From Patescibacteria group bacterium (GTDB lineage Bacteria > Patescibacteriota > Minisyncoccia > Phycocordibacterales > UBA2100), in NCBI GenBank assembly GCA_038062075.1, contig JBBTXY010000003.1, forward strand, positions 17,589-81,588: a DNA stretch of 64,000 nucleotides, written 5' to 3'. The translations under genes were made by a program, and so were the position numbers. This document shows positions 41,246 to 62,929 of the stretch, one piece after another. A model generated the notes under the pieces. That model was not told the origin of the DNA. It saw only the letters and a list, made by a program, of their open reading frames with translations, and made no database searches. Numbering within the stretch: position 1 is the first letter of the stretch; each line of letters starts with the position of its first letter.

Positions 41246-42685
41246 ATGTCTCGTATGAAAGAGCAGACATTCGATTATATTGTTCTTGGCGGCGGTGTCT
41301 CGGGTTTGGGATTCGCGAAGCGGGTGAGCGAGAACAGCAGGTCGGTGTTGGTCCTCGAAAAAGAAGCAGTTGTCGGCGGCCTCTCGCGGAGCCTCCAGCA
41401 TAAGGGGTTTTATCTGGACTTTTGCGCGCATCGCTTCCACACAAAGAACAAAGCTCTCCTTGATGAGATCCGTTCGCTTCCCGGTCTCACGATGGAGCGC
41501 CATATCAAGAAGAGCCGCATCTACATGTTCGGGAAGTATTTGAAGTATCCGTTCGAGATACAGAATCTCCTTCGCGCCATGCCTATCACCCAGAGCTTCC
41601 TTTCAGGGCTCTCGTTCCTCAAGAACCTCGCGTTGAAATCGCTGCGAACGACGCGAGACCTGCGCTCATATAAAGATTGGTTCGTTCATCTCTATGGTAC
41701 ACGCCTGTATGAAGTCATGTGCCGGCCGTATACCTCGAAGATATGGCATCGTGATCCCAGCGAGATATCCGCAGATTGGGCCGATCAGCGTTTCCAAGGA
41801 GAGAACCTCTCCAAGCTTCTCGGGCGGATCATGAAGAAGATACTCACGCTGGATTTCAGTTCATACAATCTGGAGGACGACAGCCTCGCCCCGGATGGCG
41901 GCGCATTCTACTATCCACTGCGCGGCATCCAGGAGATGCCGGACGCGCTCGCGCGCTCAGCGGAGCGGAATGGCGCTCGCATTCTCACGAAGACAACGGT
42001 CACTAAGGTGAATACCGCTGCACGTACGGTTACGTTCGAGCACGAGGGGGTTCCTCGTACGGTCTCCTATGCTCAACTGATATCGACGATCCCCCTGCAT
42101 GCATACTATGCGCTCCAGGAGCGGCGCGATCCAAGGATCGAAAAGCACCTCACCAGCCTCACGTACATGGACATCATCTTTGTCTATCTATTTCTGGACA
42201 TTCCCCAGGTCTCCAACGACCACTGGTTGTATTTCCCGGACCCGGACATTATCTTCAATCGCGCCGTTGAGTTCTCGAACTGGTCGCCGCAGATGTGCCC
42301 ACCGGGGAAGACCGCGATTTGTTTCGACATCACGGTATTCCTCGAATCACCGGAATGGCAGATGAGCGATGAGGTGCTCATCGAGCGGACGATCGCCGAC
42401 GCGGCGCGCGTGGAGTATGTTAGAAAAGAGCATGTCGAAGAGGGGTTGGTTTTCCGCGTCACGCACGCGTATCCGTTCTACGACCTCGACTATCGAACGA
42501 AACTGGATGCGATCGTCCGCTTTCTTGAGACGGAACACGTGCATCTTCTCGGTCGCACTGGCATTTTCCGCTACAACAACTCCGACAACTCCATCGAGAT
42601 GGGCTTCGAGCTTGCGGAGAAGATGCTTGCCGGGAGATCTGCCGCGAGCGCTCACGAATATCGGGTAAAAGAAGTGAGCTACTGA
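41246..42685 (+). CDS. FAD-dependent oxidoreductase (amine-oxidase/PPO/Glf-like Rossmann), copy 1
   Basis: 'DYIVLGGGVSGLGFA...VLEKEAVVGG' dinucleotide-binding motif. Confidence 0.65.
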   Translation: MSRMKEQTFDYIVLGGGVSGLGFAKRVSENSRSVLVLEKEAVVGGLSRSLQHKGFYLDFCAHRFHTKNKALLDEIRSLPGLTMERHIKKSRIYMFGKYLKYPFEIQNLLRAMPITQSFLSGLSFLKNLALKSLRTTRDLRSYKDWFVHLYGTRLYEVMCRPYTSKIWHRDPSEISADWADQRFQGENLSKLLGRIMKKILTLDFSSYNLEDDSLAPDGGAFYYPLRGIQEMPDALARSAERNGARILTKTTVTKVNTAARTVTFEHEGVPRTVSYAQLISTIPLHAYYALQERRDPRIEKHLTSLTYMDIIFVYLFLDIPQVSNDHWLYFPDPDIIFNRAVEFSNWSPQMCPPGKTAICFDITVFLESPEWQMSDEVLIERTIADAARVEYVRKEHVEEGLVFRVTHAYPFYDLDYRTKLDAIVRFLETEHVHLLGRTGIFRYNNSDNSIEMGFELAEKMLAGRSAASAHEYRVKEVSY

Positions 42686-56255: not shown

Positions 56256-58799
56256 ATGTCGTTTCTCAATCAATGGTTCGGAGATGGCTCCGGGAGCGCC
56301 TTACGCCGGGCCGAACCTATAGTCGGGAAGGTCAATGCTCTTGAGGAGAGTTTCAAAGTGCTCTCGGACGAGGCGCTGAAGGCGAAAACGACCGAATTTA
56401 AGGGGCGTCTCGAGAAAGGTGGGACCTTGGACGATCTTATGCCCGAGGCCTTTGCGGCGGTGCGGGAAGCCTCCCGCCGCACGCTTGGTCAGCGTCATTT
56501 CGATGTGCAGCTCATTGGCGGTGCGGTCTTGCACCAAGGCGGCATCGCAGAGATGCGCACCGGCGAAGGGAAGACCTTAGTCGCGACACTTCCAGCCTAT
56601 CTAAATGCACTCGAAGGGAAAGGCGTGCATGTCGTGACCGTGAACGACTACCTCTCGCGGCGCGATGCCGTGTGGATGGGACAGATCTACTGGGCGCTCG
56701 GGATGACGACTGCTGTCCTGAACCACGAAAGTTCGTTCCTCTACGATCCAAGCGCGGTACCGCAGGAAGAGAAGGCGGAAGATGAGAAGGTACAGGATGA
56801 ACTCGGCGCATTCAAGGTTGTGCATGAATTCCTCCGTCCCATCTCGCGCGAAGAAGCCTACGCGGCGGACATCACCTATGGAACCAACAACGAGTATGGT
56901 TTCGACTACTTGCGCGATAACCTTGAATACGAGCCGGGAAAGATCCGCCAAAAGCAGCACCACTTCGCTATTGTTGACGAAATTGACTCCATCTTGATCG
57001 ACGAAGCGCGCACGCCCCTCATCATCTCTGCGCCGGTTGCCGACGCCGAGGGTCTCTATCAGACATTCGCGCAGATCGCTACGACGATGAAAGAAGACGA
57101 AGATTATACTGTCGAGCATAAGCATCGCGCCATCATCATGACCGACGCGGGCATCGAGAAAGCCGAAGCAGCGCTTGGTCTTGGCTCCATCTACACCGAT
57201 GCCGGTATCAAGTATGTGCACCATCTGGAGACGGCCGTGCGCGGGAAGGCCCTGTTCCAGCGCGATAAGGAATATGTCGTGCGGGGCGGGGAAGTCATCA
57301 TCGTGGATGAATTCACGGGCCGCATGCAGCCAGGCAGACGCTGGAGTGAAGGCTTGCACCAGGCGATCGAGGCCAAAGAAGGCGTCGCCATACAAAAAGA
57401 GAGCCGCACGTTCGCGTCCATCACGTTCCAGAATTATTTCCGTCTTTACACGAAGCTTGCCGGGATGACGGGCACTGCCGCGACCTCTTCGGAAGAGTTC
57501 TTCAAGGTCTATGGGTTGACGACCGTCGCCATCCCAACGAACAAGCCGCCGAAGCGCGTTGATCACGATGACATGATGTTCCAATCGGAGAGCGGGAAGA
57601 TGCACGCGATCGCGAAGCGCGTCAAAGACCTGCACGAAAAAGGGCAGCCCGTCCTCGTCGGCACCGTTTCCGTCGAGAAGAACGAACTTCTCTCCACCCA
57701 TTTCAAACAAGCAGGTATCCCGCACGAACTTCTCAACGCGAAGAACCACGAGCGGGAAGGCGAGATCATCGCACAGGCCGGACGCAGGGGCGCCGTCGTC
57801 ATCGCGACGAATATGGCCGGCCGCGGCGTCGACATCAAGCTTGGAGGAAATCCGGCAACTGACGAGCAGTATGAGGAAGTGAGAAACGCAGGCGGTCTTT
57901 TCGTCCTCGGCACGGAGCGGCACGAAGCGCGGCGCATTGACAATCAGCTGCGCGGCCGTGCTGGCCGCCAAGGAGATCCTGGTGAGACGCAATTCTTCGT
58001 TTCCCTCGAAGATTCGCTGATGAAGATATTCGCCTCTGATGTTATCAAGCGAGTGATGGGCACCTTCAAGATCCCCGAAGACGAGCCTATTTACAATTCG
58101 ATGATAACGAAATCGTTGGAGCGTGCGCAGACGAGGATCGAGGAGATGAATTTCGATTCGCGCAAACATGTGCTTGCCTACGACGACGTCTTGAACGTGC
58201 AGCGCAAGAGCATCTACGAGCGTCGCCGCGCTCTTCTTGTTGGCGGCAACGAGACCGTCGATGGAGAACTCGGCCGCGTCGCGGAATTCATTCTCGAAGA
58301 GAAAGACGCGTGGAGGGGAAAGATCCAAGAACTAAAAACTAAGAACGGGGAAGCATTTTATCCCGCTGTGAGGCGTTTACTTCTGCAAACCGTCGATCTT
58401 CTGTGGGTCGAGCACCTCGAAGCGATGGAATACCTGCGCTCCTCGGTGAACCTGCGCGCGTACGGCCAGCGCGATCCTTTGGTGGAATACAAGAAAGAAG
58501 GCCTGCGCCTTTTCCAAGGGATGGAAGCATCCTACACGTTGCACGTTGCCTCAACTGTGCCTGGCCTGTTCGGAGCGCAACAGCGCGAAGGCCTGCCTGC
58601 CGCAGTCTTGACGAAGGCGGGGGAAGTCGTGCAAAAAGCTGCGCAATCTATTACCGCATCGCACGTGCACACCGGCATCAAAAAATACGGCCGCAACGAC
58701 AAGGTCACCATCACCGACGGCACGACGACGCAGGAAATGAAATTCAAGAAGGCAGAGCGGCTCTTACAAACTGGTCAGTGGAAAATTGTTGAGCGTTGA
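56256..58799 (+). CDS. secA: Preprotein translocase ATPase SecA (short form, no C-terminal zinc finger)
   Basis: 'RTGEGKTLVATLPAYLNAL', DEAD-like 'IVDEIDSILIDEARTPLIIS', 'TNMAGRGVDIKLGG'. Confidence 0.95.
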   Translation: MSFLNQWFGDGSGSALRRAEPIVGKVNALEESFKVLSDEALKAKTTEFKGRLEKGGTLDDLMPEAFAAVREASRRTLGQRHFDVQLIGGAVLHQGGIAEMRTGEGKTLVATLPAYLNALEGKGVHVVTVNDYLSRRDAVWMGQIYWALGMTTAVLNHESSFLYDPSAVPQEEKAEDEKVQDELGAFKVVHEFLRPISREEAYAADITYGTNNEYGFDYLRDNLEYEPGKIRQKQHHFAIVDEIDSILIDEARTPLIISAPVADAEGLYQTFAQIATTMKEDEDYTVEHKHRAIIMTDAGIEKAEAALGLGSIYTDAGIKYVHHLETAVRGKALFQRDKEYVVRGGEVIIVDEFTGRMQPGRRWSEGLHQAIEAKEGVAIQKESRTFASITFQNYFRLYTKLAGMTGTAATSSEEFFKVYGLTTVAIPTNKPPKRVDHDDMMFQSESGKMHAIAKRVKDLHEKGQPVLVGTVSVEKNELLSTHFKQAGIPHELLNAKNHEREGEIIAQAGRRGAVVIATNMAGRGVDIKLGGNPATDEQYEEVRNAGGLFVLGTERHEARRIDNQLRGRAGRQGDPGETQFFVSLEDSLMKIFASDVIKRVMGTFKIPEDEPIYNSMITKSLERAQTRIEEMNFDSRKHVLAYDDVLNVQRKSIYERRRALLVGGNETVDGELGRVAEFILEEKDAWRGKIQELKTKNGEAFYPAVRRLLLQTVDLLWVEHLEAMEYLRSSVNLRAYGQRDPLVEYKKEGLRLFQGMEASYTLHVASTVPGLFGAQQREGLPAAVLTKAGEVVQKAAQSITASHVHTGIKKYGRNDKVTITDGTTTQEMKFKKAERLLQTGQWKIVER

Positions 58800-58953: not shown

Positions 58954-60405
58954 ATGATTGCCCGCATGTCCGAATTCGTTCCTACGATAGGTCTTGAGAT
59001 TCATGCGGAGCTGAAGACGCGCACTAAGATGTTCTGCAACTCGAAGAATGACCCCGAAGAAAAGCGGCCGAATGTGAATATCTGCCCCGTCTGTCTCGCG
59101 CATCCTGGAACGCTTCCGGTCATCAATAGGGAAGCTGTGCGACATGTTCTGCGCGTGGGCGTCGCGCTTGGCGGCGAGCTTGCTGATTACACTGAATTTG
59201 ACCGCAAGAATTATTTCTATCCTGACCTCCCCAAGGGTTACCAGGTCAGTCAGTACGAATTCCCGCTTGTTTCTAGGGGGTCGCTAAACGGCATTGTCAT
59301 CACGCGCGTGCATCTTGAAGAGGACACGGCGAGCTCCATCCACGATGCCAAAACGGGAGCTACACTTATAAACTTTAACCGCTCCGGCGTTCCTTTGATG
59401 GAGCTGGTGACAGAGCCCGTGATACACACGGCGGAGGAAGCGGGGAACTTCGCACGCGAGCTGCAGATTCTCCTGCGCTATCTTGATGCGAGCGATGCCG
59501 ATATGGAGAAAGGGCAGATGCGCCTTGAAGCGAATGTTTCCGTTTCCGATTCTGACGTGCTTGGCACCAAAGTGGAAGTGAAAAATATCAACTCGTTCCG
59601 CGCGATGGAGCGGGCAATCGCCTATGAGATCAAACGCCAGAGCGACGTTCTTGCTCGCGGTGAGCGCGTAATTCAAGAGACCCGCGGTTGGGACGATACG
59701 AAGCAGCAGACATTCTCGCAGCGTGTAAAAGAAGTTGCCGCCGATTACCGATATTTTCCCGATCCCGATCTGCCATCATTGAAACTCTCGGAGATCTCTG
59801 AGTTTTCGCATGACGTACTTATGCAGTCGATCCCCGAATTACCAGAGGCGCGCAGGGGGCGCTATGCAGAGTGGGGGATAAAGCCGGCTGACGCGGAGCA
59901 GTTCGTGAGCTATCCCCGCCTCGGTGCTTTCTTCGACGAGGTGGCAGAAAGGCATCTTGGCGACGCTGCCTTTATCCAACGCTCGGCAAATTACATTGCG
60001 AACGATTTAGTGAAGATAATCCGAGATACCGGAGAGCAAGATACGGAATTGATTGCTGAAATACCGATTTCAGCTACCAGATTCGAGAAAATAATCAGGC
60101 TCATAGGAGAGGGGAAGATCTCCTCTCGGGTGGCCAAAGACCTACTAGTGCACACGATAGAAGAGGGCAAAGAGCCTGAGACGATCGCCAAGGAGCGCGG
60201 GCTCTTTACTGAAGCCCAAGGTGCAGGCGTCGAACCCATCATCGAAAAGATTCTCGAAGAACATGCTTCGGTGGTCGCTGATTATAAAAAGGGGAAAGAG
60301 GCTGCGCTGCAATTTCTCATCGGCCAGTGCATGCGTGTGCTTAAAGGCGCAGCGGATCCTGTAGAGCTTCGCGCGAGGATACTTGAGAAAATTACTACAA
60401 AGTGA
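58954..60405 (+). CDS. gatB: Asp/Glu-tRNA(Asn/Gln) amidotransferase subunit B
   Basis: 'PTIGLEIHAEL', 'NICPVCLAHPGTLPV', 'VHLEEDT', C-terminal GatB/YqeY domain. Confidence 0.9.
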   Translation: MIARMSEFVPTIGLEIHAELKTRTKMFCNSKNDPEEKRPNVNICPVCLAHPGTLPVINREAVRHVLRVGVALGGELADYTEFDRKNYFYPDLPKGYQVSQYEFPLVSRGSLNGIVITRVHLEEDTASSIHDAKTGATLINFNRSGVPLMELVTEPVIHTAEEAGNFARELQILLRYLDASDADMEKGQMRLEANVSVSDSDVLGTKVEVKNINSFRAMERAIAYEIKRQSDVLARGERVIQETRGWDDTKQQTFSQRVKEVAADYRYFPDPDLPSLKLSEISEFSHDVLMQSIPELPEARRGRYAEWGIKPADAEQFVSYPRLGAFFDEVAERHLGDAAFIQRSANYIANDLVKIIRDTGEQDTELIAEIPISATRFEKIIRLIGEGKISSRVAKDLLVHTIEEGKEPETIAKERGLFTEAQGAGVEPIIEKILEEHASVVADYKKGKEAALQFLIGQCMRVLKGAADPVELRARILEKITTK

Positions 60406-60985
60406 TCATAGTCGCCAGGAACCTACGGATCTCAACATCTCCTCAGCTTACAGAGATGAGGTCCAGACAAAATAATTTTGGTGCGATGATTCTTACTTCC
60501 ACACCGAACTGGTCTTAAAAGAGACGCTAGTTATGGTATGGGAACCATACGAGCTATCTGAATGTGTGCTTGATGCTTTTCGGCAACAAGAGAATACATT
60601 TTGTAATTGACCAGAGAGAGCTTGAGTGTATGACTCATGCTTCGATATTCAAGAATTTCAGGCTCATTTCACCGGTCGTATATTCCACTCCCAGCTGAAA
60701 AGGGAGTAGATCGCTCAATGCAAGGATCGCATCAATTTCAATCCCGGTCGCAATAATGGCACTTCAAGCATTGTAGGGGAGTCACATCCATGATCATTCT
60801 GGTTAGAAATGAGTGGTGGAGAATATTGTAATTATTTTTACAACATATCTTCGCTAGGTTGCGCCCTTAAGGATACGATCGTGCCTCGTCTAGGTCCCAA
60901 ACGGGGATTTCGAGGGTCAAAATGGCAAAATCTGCTGTGATTTCAGGCTGGCGTGGGGATTGTGGTAGCCATTTTATGGCTTATT

Positions 60986-61027
60986 TAGCAAGGCTAAACC
61001 TCGCATGTGCGAGGTTTAGCCTTGCTA
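60986..61027. repeat. Perfect 40-bp palindrome (TAGCAAGGCTAAACCTCGCA|TGCGAGGTTTAGCCTTGCTA)
   Basis: Exact reverse-complement arms with no spacer, 108 bp upstream of the HuH transposase start. Confidence 0.65.
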
Positions 61028-61134
61028 GGTGAGCCAAGATATCCAGATTTTAGGCTTTTGAGGTCTTTTCAGTCCTAAAGTAGGTGCAATAATGGTTCCT
61101 GAAGCCCGGGGAGGTATTTTCGAGTCAGGAAAGT

Positions 61135-61815
61135 ATGAGACGGACCACATTTGCTGAAGGTGAATACTACCATTTGTATAATCGTGGGGTCGATAAGCGC
61201 ACTGTTTTCAGCACGCGCGGCGATTTCGAACGCTTCAAAGCGTATCTATATCTTCTGAACGACGAAGAGAGCACGCGGGCATCAAATTTCTTTGAAGGTA
61301 CGCGAGGGAAAGACCCTTATGAAAACGCGCGGGGAAACCCCCTTGTCGCGATCGGCGCGTACTGCCTCATGCCAAACCATTTCCATCTCCTCGTCACACC
61401 CCTTCTTGAACATGGCGTCCCGCGCTTCATGCAAAAACTCCTCACCGCTTATACAATGTACTTCAATGAGCGTACCCTTCGCTCCGGAAGTCTTTTTGAA
61501 GGAACATACAAGAGCCGTCATGCGGAGAGCGACACGTACCTCAAGTATCTCTACGCCTACATCCATCTTAACCCGGCGCGTTTTTTTATTACTGATTGGC
61601 AGAAGGCAACCGAAGGAGATCTGCATTCACTGGAACATAAGATCGCGACATATCCGTATTCAAGCGCGCACGAATATTTCACATCGAAGTATGTCATCAC
61701 ATCGCCATCGCATTTTCCGCGGCACTTTGTGCGGGCGAAAGACATACGATCACACCTTAATTTCTGGTTGAGGTTCAGAGTAGGTGAGGAGAAGCCTGTT
61801 CTCGGGGAAACGTAA
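61135..61815 (+). CDS. IS200-like / REP-associated tyrosine (HuH Y1) transposase
   Basis: 'YHLYNRGVDKRTVF', HuH 'CLMPNHFHLLV', catalytic Tyr region 'YLYAYIHLNP'. Confidence 0.7.
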   Translation: MRRTTFAEGEYYHLYNRGVDKRTVFSTRGDFERFKAYLYLLNDEESTRASNFFEGTRGKDPYENARGNPLVAIGAYCLMPNHFHLLVTPLLEHGVPRFMQKLLTAYTMYFNERTLRSGSLFEGTYKSRHAESDTYLKYLYAYIHLNPARFFITDWQKATEGDLHSLEHKIATYPYSSAHEYFTSKYVITSPSHFPRHFVRAKDIRSHLNFWLRFRVGEEKPVLGET

Positions 61816-61870
61816 AAAAGAGATATTGACACATCAGTTATCTCGTTGGATACCCAACAATATCTTTTTT
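61815..61870 (+). promoter_or_regulatory. Consensus -35 TTGACA (61826-61831) bracketed by inverted repeat AAAAAAGAGATATTG / CAATATCTTTTTT
   Basis: Lies between tnpA stop and HTH gene 61931; either IS right-end hairpin or operator/promoter. Confidence 0.35.
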
Positions 61871-61930
61871 AGCCTTATTCTTGCTGCCGAGATTCTCCAC
61901 AGGGGCGGTCAATGAGTAGAGACAACCTGC

Positions 61931-62929
61931 ATGTTCGTGGATATAATCCGAGACATGGCTCAGGAGATAAATCTCGGAGGGACGATATACATTTCTTCAA
62001 AGCAGGCAGCCGAGATTACCGGCTACGCCCAGGATTATGTCGGCCAACTTGCACGTAGCGGTGCTATCGAAGCGAAGCGGATCTCAGGGCTTTGGTATAT
62101 TCATGAGGACTCGATCCGACAACACAAAGAGAAGACCGATGCGTACGTCCCACAGCCGCCGCAGCCAGAGCGAGTTCAAGAAGCTGAAGTAAGTTTGTCA
62201 TTGGACGGAAAGGACTATGTCTCTGCAAAACGTGCATCAAAGCTCACAGGCTATTCCCAGGACTATGTGGGGCAATTGGCGCGCTCTGGACAGGTGTTGT
62301 CACGCCAGATCGGGAACCGGTGGTATGTTGACCGTACGTCGCTCGTCGAACACAAGAAAAAGAAAGATTCGTTGCTAGCCACAGTCCAGAGGGACTCGGT
62401 TGGCCTTGCCTCGGCATCAGAGGAAGGAGAAAACATCACAGAAGAGGCGATATCGGAGAGCCGAGACACGCATTTTACATATATTAATGAGGATAATCAG
62501 CCGATTCCTCAAATCCCTGAGAAAGAATCCAGCTATCCCGACACCAGTCTTGAAGGTCGTTCTGCTCCAGAAGAGACTCTCGAGAGCGATGTTGTCAATC
62601 AGATCCCCATACATGTCGTCTGGGCGCCAAGGCAAGGCCGTCTGGGCGCTTCATCTGGACCCGGAGGGAGGTCACATGCCAATCTCTCAAAGAGAAGCAT
62701 CTTACTTGCAGCCGGAGGTTCCTTGCTTGTTGGCATGCTTGCGCTGGTCTTATACTTAGGAGTTAGTGGTGTCTTTACTTTGCCTATTCACAATCTCGGA
62801 TTACCGAGAAATGAAGCAGCCAAAGGGTACCTTGGCAATAGTATTATTGTCAGGAGGGTGGGTGATAGTATTCACCAACTCGCTGAGATTCTCTTTTCAA
62901 AAGAAGTAGTTTATCAAAGGGTCCCATAG
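61931..62929 (+). CDS. Membrane-anchored protein with two tandem excisionase-type HTH (HTH_17-like) repeats
   Basis: Repeats 'SSKQAAEITGYAQDYVGQLARSGAIEAKRISGLWYIHEDSI' / 'SAKRASKLTGYSQDYVGQLARSGQVLSRQIGNRWYVDRTSL'; C-terminal TM 'ILLAAGGSLLVGMLALVLYLGV'. Confidence 0.55.
   Translation: MFVDIIRDMAQEINLGGTIYISSKQAAEITGYAQDYVGQLARSGAIEAKRISGLWYIHEDSIRQHKEKTDAYVPQPPQPERVQEAEVSLSLDGKDYVSAKRASKLTGYSQDYVGQLARSGQVLSRQIGNRWYVDRTSLVEHKKKKDSLLATVQRDSVGLASASEEGENITEEAISESRDTHFTYINEDNQPIPQIPEKESSYPDTSLEGRSAPEETLESDVVNQIPIHVVWAPRQGRLGASSGPGGRSHANLSKRSILLAAGGSLLVGMLALVLYLGVSGVFTLPIHNLGLPRNEAAKGYLGNSIIVRRVGDSIHQLAEILFSKEVVYQRVP

Follow-up and report, generated by a model that had tools for sequence, protein, structure and literature searches.

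Transposases of the IS200, IS608 and ISDra2 type (TnpA) recognize subterminal DNA hairpins on single-stranded DNA. To our knowledge, domesticated HuH nucleases of the RAYT type (transposases associated with repetitive extragenic palindromes, REPs) and their partners, the REPs and the REP doublets known as REPINs, have been characterized almost only in Proteobacteria, Cyanobacteria and Bacteroidetes. RAYTs have a low copy number, are inherited vertically and behave like housekeeping genes (PMC5581495). Quentin et al. 2018 have described the signature Y---NP for class 2, the TnpA-REP/RAYT side of the superfamily, and Y---Q for IS200 transposases (PMC6006769). Subclass 2.1 of their scheme is the same as the Group 1 RAYTs of Bertels et al. 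2017 (PMC5581495), which are largely TIRYTs. It is listed with the motifs NH[YF]H, FQ, Y[IV]HLNP and SS and a length of ~238 amino acids (aa) (PMC6006769 Table 1), and it is reported to be linked to GGGG[AT][CG]A[CG] terminal inverted repeats and a C-terminal domain resembling a helix-turn-helix (HTH), namely Bac_DnaA_C, HTH_23 or HTH_28, and to be without REP-like hairpins around the gene (PMC6006769). Here we discuss a locus from a Patescibacteria group bacterium, in a stretch of 64,000 nucleotides (nt) of contig JBBTXY010000003.1 that is referred to as a whole as the window. It consists of a gene for a 226-aa Y1 HuH protein, a large palindrome in front of it and a long non-coding gap between the palindrome and gatB. 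The locus probably encodes a RAYT-like Y1 HuH nuclease that has been domesticated and is inherited vertically, and has one site cognate to it, a REPIN-like inverted doublet of an AGG-N5-CCT hairpin.

The gene product belongs to the Y1 HuH enzymes of the IS200/RAYT superfamily and has the class-2 TnpA-Y1 signature (HuH, Y---NP and an SS motif in the tail). It matches Pfam PF01797 (Y1_Tnp) over residues 71-144 with 29.4 bits at a cutoff of 23, and a preliminary description of the window had recognized the gene correctly from its NHFHLLV motif (residues 81-87). The HuH motif is N81-H82-F83-H84. It is followed by LFEG at residue 120, by Y142-IHLNP within a YAYIHLNP match that begins at residue 140, by YPYSS at residue 173 and by a helical C-terminal tail. 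In an alignment of 34 relatives H84, Y173, S176 and S177 are invariant, H82, Y142 and H144 are nearly so, and the motif at residue 120 reads LF(E/Q)G. The AlphaFold (AF2) model has a pLDDT of 88 and a pTM of 0.87, with the order of strands and helices expected for a HuH fold. When the model was compared with the PDB using Foldseek the best match was 4ER8, the E. coli RAYT bound to a REP hairpin (E 1e-5), followed by the TnpA proteins of ISDra2, IS608 and IS200.

Relatives of the protein are numerous, with 7,582 matches in the protein collection. The best 120 of these ~7,600 relatives are 198-264 aa long, most of them 216-244 aa, and the few that are named carry Patescibacteria lineages or generic labels such as 'putative transposase' or RayT. 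At least 565 stretches from GTDB species genomes hold the family. Eighty homologous loci were kept from them, all from metagenome-assembled genomes (MAGs), and those with named affiliations belong to Patescibacteria/CPR lineages (CPR for candidate phyla radiation). The motif set of the window protein (NHFH, an FQ-type motif, YIHLNP and SS) is the second variant listed for subclass 2.1 in PMC6006769 Table 1, an assignment made by comparing motifs only. A 'transposase' from a Pseudomonas aeruginosa plasmid represents the other 2.1 variant (NHVH, WE, YIELNP, YPWSS); it is 31% identical to the window protein, which has a 24-aa insertion before the HuH strand and a 14-aa insertion before YPYSS.

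All tests point to a resident gene that is single-copy in the available DNA, vertically inherited and syntenic. One relative has an 81%-identical Y1 protein (P0002, at locus L005), and the order SecA-GatB-gap-Y1-HTH is kept on six independent contigs that carry it. Four further loci, L001-L004, from strains of the sampling site, are 100% identical to the window and are uninformative for comparison. Between the window and L005 the nonsynonymous and synonymous distances of the Y1 gene are dN 0.108 and dS ~1.8 (dN/dS ~0.06), compared with 0.103 and 1.07 for GatB and 0.069 and 1.48 for SecA. The Y1 gene is therefore under purifying selection as strong as that on its housekeeping neighbors, at a distance at which neutral change is saturated. 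Among the 80 GTDB loci, 11 of the 13 closest Y1 pairs (all at least 77.7% identical) have homologous flanks, including all six pairs at 81% or more, and the sharing of flanks declines with distance. Proteins that were found on 7-10 contigs always have the same neighbors. Where a genome has two Y1 copies the paralogues are 48-62% identical, and each has its own type of hairpin. Homologues on plasmids (17 records, at most 33% identity over long matches) and in phage (one record) are remote only. No second Y1 copy was found in the ~72 kb of contig that the copy searches covered (the 64-kb window and 7.8 kb beyond it), and every contig with the protein has it in the same context. The window gene thus resembles RAYTs in its low copy number, vertical inheritance and housekeeping-like behavior.

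The palindrome had been described as a perfect, spacer-less inverted repeat 108 bp upstream of the gene. A perfect inverted repeat is indeed present at 60986-61027, and it ends 107 nt before the ATG. It is not spacer-less, but consists of 20 nt, a TG spacer and 20 nt, 42 nt in total, and its arms extend outward to 29 nt. The extended palindrome has three mismatches, every one of them T.G on the + strand. As single-stranded DNA the region (60960-61060) folds with -27.2 kcal/mol for the + strand and -26.0 kcal/mol for the - strand, at a z of ~-10. Each perfect arm is by itself a small hairpin-like unit, GCAAGG-CTAAA-CCTCGC, of the kind found throughout the family (see below). Since the two arms are this unit in an inverted pair, the palindrome is a REPIN-like inverted doublet of the cognate hairpin. 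A smaller hairpin flanks it on the side of the gap. Its 3' half, TGGCT, can alternatively pair with AGCCA at 61032-61036, and it is weakly supported because it is present at locus L012 and not at L005.

Within the gap, no intergenic DNA is conserved other than that around the palindrome. An island of 117 nt is 84.6% identical to L005, from a genome at a dS of 1.1-1.8 from that of the window, and the remainder of the gap is unalignable with that locus. The island has shorter matches to the palindrome regions of L012, L013, L014 and L095. When the non-coding flanks of six related loci were compared, only the palindrome regions matched. The perfect arms of the window and L005 differ at two positions, and each difference is compensated on the opposite arm (C:G to G:C and A:T to G:C). 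In an alignment of eight related palindromes the 19-pair core helix is 96.6% paired and 10 of the 19 pairs have double-sided changes, values that were reached in 0 of 500 shuffles. Nine core pairs are invariant (column pairs 14-19/45-50 and 22-24/40-42), which are the AGGCTA and CCT of each arm.

The palindrome follows the Y1 gene and not its neighbors. Related long doublets adjoin homologues that are not beside gatB, at L012, L013, L058 and L074, and in L013 and L074 they flank the gene on either side. The same invariant core is found in palindromes next to Y1 homologues whose neighbors are the GAPDH operon, Laminin_G genes and others. The genome of P0064 (54% identity; L095-L098, 838-4663) has neither Y1 nor palindrome between gatB and the HTH_17 gene, which adjoin one another on the opposite strand. 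There Y1 is found upstream of gatB and divergent to it, between non-coding flanks of 530 nt and 700 nt, and a decayed palindrome precedes it by 110-160 nt. In that genome the Y1 module has been moved or inverted locally and is still beside gatB; the palindrome therefore travels with Y1 and not with gatB or the HTH gene. A change of orientation is also seen in the 5' flank motif of the island, TTTATGGCTTATTTAG (60963-60985), which faces away from Y1 in the window and in the 81% relative and faces the gene in L012, L013, L014 and L095. Since its orientation differs between lineages, the palindrome module seems to have been flipped relative to the sister lineages. Because like hairpins accompany homologues in other contexts and pairing is kept by compensatory changes, the palindrome is very probably the cognate hairpin of the Y1 protein, a prediction made from sequence comparison; this agrees with the suggestion of the preliminary description that it is a hairpin recognized by the enzyme.

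The unit of the palindrome arm recurs across the family. In a non-redundant set of 83 homologous loci (493 kb), 160 AGG-N5-CCT hairpins with at least four further pairs were counted, as against 1.7 in shuffled sequence. The consensus is T-(T/G)-A-(G/C)-C-(A/G)-AGG-N5-CCT-(T/C)-G-(C/G)-T-A-A. A unit is found just upstream of the gene in 55 of the 83 loci, at the stop in 49 and at both places in 43. Most upstream units are centered 30-40 nt before the start (histogram bins -40 and -30, i.e. -40 to -21). Between the upstream hairpin and the ATG there is a -10-like box in 51 of the 55 loci. In 35 loci exactly 6 nt separate the end of the box from the ATG, and 32 have the TG of an extended -10, which implies leaderless mRNAs. 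At the other end of the gene the unit overlaps the stop codon in 15 loci, and TAG or TGA is often within the stem (GTAGCAAGG..., TGAGCAAGG...). Promoter and stop units are exemplified, among loci L013-L092, by L017 (2956-2978 and 3663-3685) and L023 (2347, 2953 and 3645). In many homologues identical hairpins bracket the gene in a hairpin-gene-hairpin unit of ~700 bp. The two flanking copies are direct in 22 loci and inverted in 19, a mixture that does not suit the strand-specific ends of IS200/IS605 and resembles REP arrangements.

Copies of the unit are also found away from the two ends of the gene. Another 42 units lie nearby, up to a few kb off; 30 are of the gene's own type and 20 are outside long open frames. 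In most loci these copies differ from the gene-flanking unit at 0-2 of 21 positions, which is consistent with homogenization. The coding sequence itself includes an in-frame copy of the flanking hairpin of the same gene in 13-14 of 84 homologues, 160 to 200 nt into the gene, in the variable segment before the HuH strand (L016, L026, L028, L061, L066, L069, L072, L075, L076, L085, L088 and L091). Most of them differ from the flanking copies at 0-2 of 21 nt, which suggests that in-frame and flanking copies evolve in concert. The window differs from most of the family in that it has a single doublet upstream, at 107 nt from the ATG instead of ~20-35 nt, and no hairpin at or after the stop codon. 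About 170 nt into its gene there is a weak stem-loop, AGGG-AAAGA-CCCT, which fails the unit criteria used for the family count and is possibly a relic of an in-frame hairpin or a chance occurrence. A promoter can be proposed between the palindrome and the ATG from its match to the consensus only (9 of 12 positions, with TG), and the region has no more promoter-like sites than expected from shuffled sequence.

Three related arrangements were noted in passing. At L065 (732-2927) at least six copies of one arm (TAACCCTCCGCA) occur ~700 nt apart, interleaved with four open reading frames (ORFs) of 87-101 aa upstream of Y1, in a local REP-like array. At L057 (1299-1708, 1422-1688) the full gene is preceded at 1.3 kb by a partial second Y1 (residues 2-94), which is ringed by four copies of the long palindrome arm and looks like an intermediate of duplication or decay. 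The metagenomes that contain the 81% relative also have a second member of the Y1 family, P0107 (L101-L108), which is 52% identical to the window protein. Its gene has that for an S1-domain protein on one side and that for peptidyl-tRNA hydrolase on the other, with a hairpin of 17-bp stem (…CACAGG-TTTAG-CCTGTG…) over its stop codon, and it may be either a paralogue from the same genome or a gene of a different organism.

Further copies of the palindrome arm were sought at several scales. In the 64-kb window the 20-mer arm has no match at up to three mismatches other than its partner arm (0.01 expected by chance), and there is no copy at up to four mismatches in the further 7.8 kb of contig. 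The invariant core AGGCTARRCCT was not found outside the palindrome in a scan of the contig. With the two variable positions left free, the arm has 0 matches in the GTDB representative genomes, a set without this MAG. In JGI metagenomes it is present only on two contigs, both of which carry the orthologous locus of the 81% relative. As far as can be tested in the ~72 kb of contig and the JGI metagenomes, this lineage appears to have no REP population. The sole other AGG-N5-CCT unit of the window, ACGAGG-GGGTT-CCTCGT at 42045-42055, lies within a 502-codon open frame (479-aa ORF, 41246-42685) and is probably a chance occurrence, 0.35 being expected per window.

The gap before the island was described at the outset as lacking any ORF of 60 aa or more and as lower in GC than its surroundings, which is correct (largest ORF 44 aa; GC 0.43-0.44 as against 0.50-0.60 in the neighboring genes). 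Its several small hairpins, which had also been pointed out, are unremarkable, with a z for the whole gap of ~-2.0 on the + strand and -1.9 on the - strand. The suggestion that the gap is an element remnant or a non-coding RNA was negative in every test. There was no Rfam match at the gathering threshold, nor any at E<=10 beyond generic hairpin matches, and a scan of the whole window for tRNA and tmRNA gave nothing. For the palindrome, Rfam on 60300-62000 gave generic miRNA-hairpin matches only. A family hidden Markov model (HMM) run on six frames detected no Y1 remnant in the gap (positive control 367 bits), and Pfam on six frames revealed no remnant of tnpB or of another domain, with nothing below E 0.08. 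When all six frames were joined as one query there was no match at E<=0.01 in 5.8 billion proteins. Degenerate copies of the arm are not in excess, the best ungapped matches in the gap being equal to shuffled expectation, and neither the corresponding gap of the 81% relative nor the non-coding flanks of other relatives showed similarity. The 81% relative nonetheless keeps a gap of similar length (~600 nt) with unrelated sequence, and the closest Y1 relatives have 270-700 nt of non-coding DNA on each side. The gap is probably a fast-evolving or neutral spacer, with no detectable function. Public gene sets of the 81% relative include a 143-aa ORF that covers its gap and palindrome (L005 5228-5659; L006-L009). 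This ORF was rejected as a gene and is almost certainly spurious: it has a GTG start, no Pfam match, tblastn similarity to the window over the palindrome alone and no counterpart ORF in the window.

On the far side of the gene an imperfect inverted repeat is present, as the preliminary description had stated. It has a nested GTTGG-ATAC-CCAAC stem followed by a T-rich tail, resembling a terminator (z -2.55). It was considered as the right-end hairpin of an insertion sequence (IS) and rejected, as it does not resemble the palindrome arm and is not conserved in the 81% relative. No copy of the palindrome arm was found downstream of the gene, where the best ungapped matches equal shuffled expectation, and in the downstream spacer only 61885-61930 is conserved with L005. 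GGGG[AT][CG]A[CG] repeats of the TIRYT type were not found in 60301-62100, and the tail of the Y1 protein has no Pfam match to an HTH.

The palindrome would fold when the DNA is single-stranded or would be extruded as a cruciform, and a dimer of the Y1 protein would then bind its stem and tip. The HuH histidines would hold a divalent metal, and Tyr142 could nick and rejoin a single strand near the foot of the hairpin through a covalent 5'-phosphotyrosine. These steps are drawn from the structures and biochemistry of RAYT, IS608 and ISDra2 (PMC3479197, PMC6006769). GC skew is positive throughout the 64 kb and the + strand carries most genes, thus the + strand is probably the lagging-strand template and the strand that folds. 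The mismatches of the palindrome, all T.G, fit this assignment, although three mismatches are weak evidence. As a single site remains and a partner at the right end is lacking, this copy would be unable to mobilize the gene, which favors binding or regulation over mobility. What has been retained is more likely a binding of the enzyme beside its own gene, for regulation or maintenance, than transposition.

Several observations weigh against this interpretation. The relationship to known RAYTs is remote: the NCBIfam RAYT equivalog model (NF047646) scores 31 bits, below its cutoff of 80, and searches of the PDB by sequence, with the single protein and with a profile, gave no meaningful match and no TnpA or RAYT. 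Binding and cleavage by the Y1 protein are suggested by homology. The symmetry and the compensatory changes are also expected for a double-stranded operator bound by a dimer, and templated repair at the DNA level within the palindrome could equally keep them. At 107 nt from the ATG and with its flank flipped, the palindrome may have a different role from the hairpins of the rest of the family. The copy searches cover ~72 kb of contig, and dispersed copies elsewhere in the genome are possible. Finally, it is odd for two lineages with a streamlined genome to retain ~560-600 nt of DNA that has no apparent function.

Other explanations of the locus share some of this evidence. It could be a complete or recently active IS of the IS200/IS605 type that moves by 'peel and paste', with the palindrome as left end and the downstream repeat as right end. 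The Y1_Tnp domain, a hairpin upstream with some inverted repeat downstream, and the many homologues whose identical hairpins bracket a unit as short as IS200 would suit such an element. However, the tyrosine motif is Y---NP and not Y---Q, the protein has 226 aa as against ~150, the downstream repeat is unrelated to the palindrome and unconserved, and neither a second copy in 72 kb nor a tnpB remnant was found. The gene is at the same position in the 81% relative at saturated dS with a dN/dS of ~0.06, and the mixed orientation of the flanking hairpins of homologues (22 direct, 19 inverted) does not fit either, so that an IS is very improbable here. The description of the locus as IS200/RAYT-like therefore stands for the superfamily and for the best structural match, but not for an IS200/IS605 element. 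A canonical RAYT with a genome-wide population of REPs or REPINs, of which the palindrome would be one dispersed copy, is closer to what is seen. The RAYT-REP complex is the best fold match, the palindrome has the architecture of a doublet, 42 extra units lie near homologues, and each paralogue has its own hairpin family, as is the case for RAYTs (PMC6006769). Yet the arm is unique wherever it was sought, on the contig and in JGI metagenomes, its core is confined to the palindrome and the gap has no excess of degenerate copies. The GT[AG]G foot of REPs is found in 11 of the 160 family units and is replaced by TTAG in the window, and the NCBIfam RAYT model scores far under its cutoff. We consider a REP population of this kind unlikely. 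The two observations on which the preliminary description was to be judged thus differ in outcome, as similarity to Y1 transposases by HMM exists (29.4 bits) but the palindrome has no REP-like copies wherever searched.

The palindrome could also be a host element that has no relation to Y1, either a terminator or insulator after gatB or an operator for a dimer such as the HTH_17 protein. Its position between gatB and the downstream genes would allow this, perfect dyad symmetry suits a dimeric DNA binder, and substitutions that preserve symmetry fit an operator as well as a hairpin. But it lies 580 nt past the gatB stop without a T-tract, and it was not called in the scan for intrinsic terminators. 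Palindromes with the same core are found beside Y1 homologues with other neighbors, and in the P0064 genome gatB and HTH_17 are adjacent without a palindrome and the decayed palindrome stays with Y1. A host element is accordingly quite improbable. It has more in its favor that the gap itself encodes a fast-evolving function, such as a lineage-specific non-coding RNA (perhaps transcribed leftward from the conserved flank), a small protein, or a decayed hairpin cluster or gene. A gap of ~600 nt persists in the 81% relative despite unrelated sequence, the closest Y1 relatives are ringed by non-coding DNA, CPR genomes are densely packed with almost no other large gap in the window, and the conserved flank motif points away from Y1 and toward the gap. 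Against this, the gap has no Rfam or Pfam match, no ORF of more than 44 aa, no protein match in any frame, a fold z of ~-2 that is equal on both strands, no Y1 or arm remnants and no conservation, and a function of this kind is doubtful.

A resident RAYT-like nuclease with one REPIN-like site is consistent with these results, and a wider proposal can be built on it. The family might form a Patescibacteria-wide clade of domesticated Y1 nucleases, self-contained 'mini-REPtrons' whose main or sole substrates would be the hairpins at their own promoter, at their stop codon and sometimes in frame, in an autoregulatory or DNA-flipping circuit that depends on hairpin extrusion and has a host function without REP spreading or transposition. 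The proposal is based on the promoter hairpin directly before an extended -10 box 6 nt from the ATG, on hairpins that co-evolve with the protein and are near-identical within a locus, and on an orientation that flips freely, both among flanking copies (22 direct, 19 inverted) and in the flank of the window relative to sister lineages. It is speculative, and we regard it as rather unlikely in this full form.

The features of the locus are collected in the following table. Window position 61135 corresponds to position 88831 of contig CAYIIW010000001.1 (Patescibacteria MAG GCA_964363605.1, Hainich groundwater). The protein encoded downstream of Y1 has HTH_17/excisionase-like modules at residues ~20-68 and ~95-145, in which the motif GY(A/S)QDYVGQLARSG recurs, and a run of hydrophobic residues around position 255. 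It adjoins gatB in relatives with or without Y1 and is 62% identical to that of the relative (dN 0.27).

Table. Position of genes, non-coding regions and repeats at the Y1 locus (window coordinates)
Feature	Position	Strand	Remarks
SecA	56256-58799	+	local gene order
GatB	58954-60405	+	local gene order
Non-coding spacer, gatB stop to Y1 ATG			729 nt
Non-coding spacer, gatB stop to island	60406-60962	.	557 nt, AT-richer, not conserved
Conserved non-coding island	60963-61079	+	holds the palindrome and flank motifs TTTATGGCTTATTTAG (5') and AGCCAAGATATCCAGATTTT (3')
Small flanking hairpin	60967-60981	+	AGCCAT-TTT-ATGGCT; sequence and DNA fold; weakly supported
Extended palindrome	60977-61036	+	60 bases; 29-nt arms, 90% complementary; 2-nt spacer
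Left perfect arm	60986-61005	+	TAGCAAGGCTAAACCTCGCA; one copy of family unit GCAAGG-CTAAA-CCTCGC, with AGG-N5-CCT
Right perfect arm	61008-61027	+	TGCGAGGTTTAGCCTTGCTA; inverted copy of the unit, exact reverse complement of left arm
Candidate promoter of Y1 gene	61066-61093	+	TTTTCA-16 nt-TGcAATAAT; consensus match only, 9/12 with TG
Y1 HuH gene	61135-61815	+	226 aa; Pfam PF01797, family alignment, model
Weak internal stem-loop	61305-61317	+	AGGG-AAAGA-CCCT, +170 nt; fails unit criteria of the family count
Imperfect inverted repeat past stop	61816-61870	+	arms 61816-61828 / 61858-61870, 92% complementary, 29 nt apart
Protein with two HTH_17 modules	61931-62929	+	332 aa

If the interpretation is right, a very large clade would have a recognizable AGG-N5-CCT hairpin wired into the promoter and stop codon of its own gene; the subclass whose motifs the window protein carries has been reported without hairpin partners. 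The clade would also offer a compact, experimentally tractable protein-hairpin pair from an uncultured phylum. Since the putative substrate adjoins the gene, the host function of a domesticated transposase could be tested. The window copy would show what is left of such a system when it has one site, with gene and palindrome under selection while the surroundings decay. For annotation, the label 'transposase' is misleading for this gene, and the 143-aa ORF over the palindrome in relatives should be dropped.

The closest structural counterpart is the E. coli RAYT (TnpA-REP, YafM; 4ER8; subclass 2.2) with its REP/BIME hairpins. Both proteins have the HuH and single-tyrosine fold with Y---NP followed by an aromatic-SS motif, a low copy number and vertical, syntenic inheritance, and in both the gene is beside a hairpin, which in the window is a REPIN-like inverted doublet. 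They differ in that identity in the structural alignment is ~11%, and in that the window protein, at 226 aa, has extra residues inserted ahead of the HuH strand and a tail that is longer. The window hairpin has a conserved AGG-N5-CCT tip in place of the GT[AG]G foot, and no dispersed copies of it were found. Subclass 2.1 has the same motif signature (NH[YF]H, FQ, Y[IV]HLNP and the SS tail), a length of ~230 aa and a low copy number; it differs from the window and its Patescibacteria homologues in that hairpins flank their genes. The IS200, IS608 and ISDra2 TnpA proteins (subclass 1.1) belong to the same Pfam family, have the same core fold, and are matched by many homologues in the ~700-bp hairpin-gene-hairpin unit. 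The window gene is set apart from them by Y---NP in place of Y---Q, by 226 in place of ~150 aa (PMC6006769 Table 1) and by a single hairpin site, a single syntenic copy and the absence of tnpB. Subclass 2.4, the cyanobacterial and Bacteroidetes RAYTs with 'double-foot' and in-frame REPs, shares with 13-14 of 84 homologues an in-frame copy of the gene's own hairpin, and some units of the family also have GTAG...CTAC feet. However, the insertion of the Patescibacteria proteins is before the HuH motif (~residues 55-65) and not between HuH and Y, the signature of 2.4 is a different one (WQ, YIxNNP), and in the window gene this place shows no more than a weak relic. In the searchable literature no description was found of this clade or its hairpins in Patescibacteria. 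It is not a new principle but a compact protein-hairpin system whose sites have an unusual placement, in that they occupy the promoter, the stop codon and the interior of the gene. The window copy is an ordinary, partly reduced member of what looks like a RAYT variant of Patescibacteria that has not been described before.

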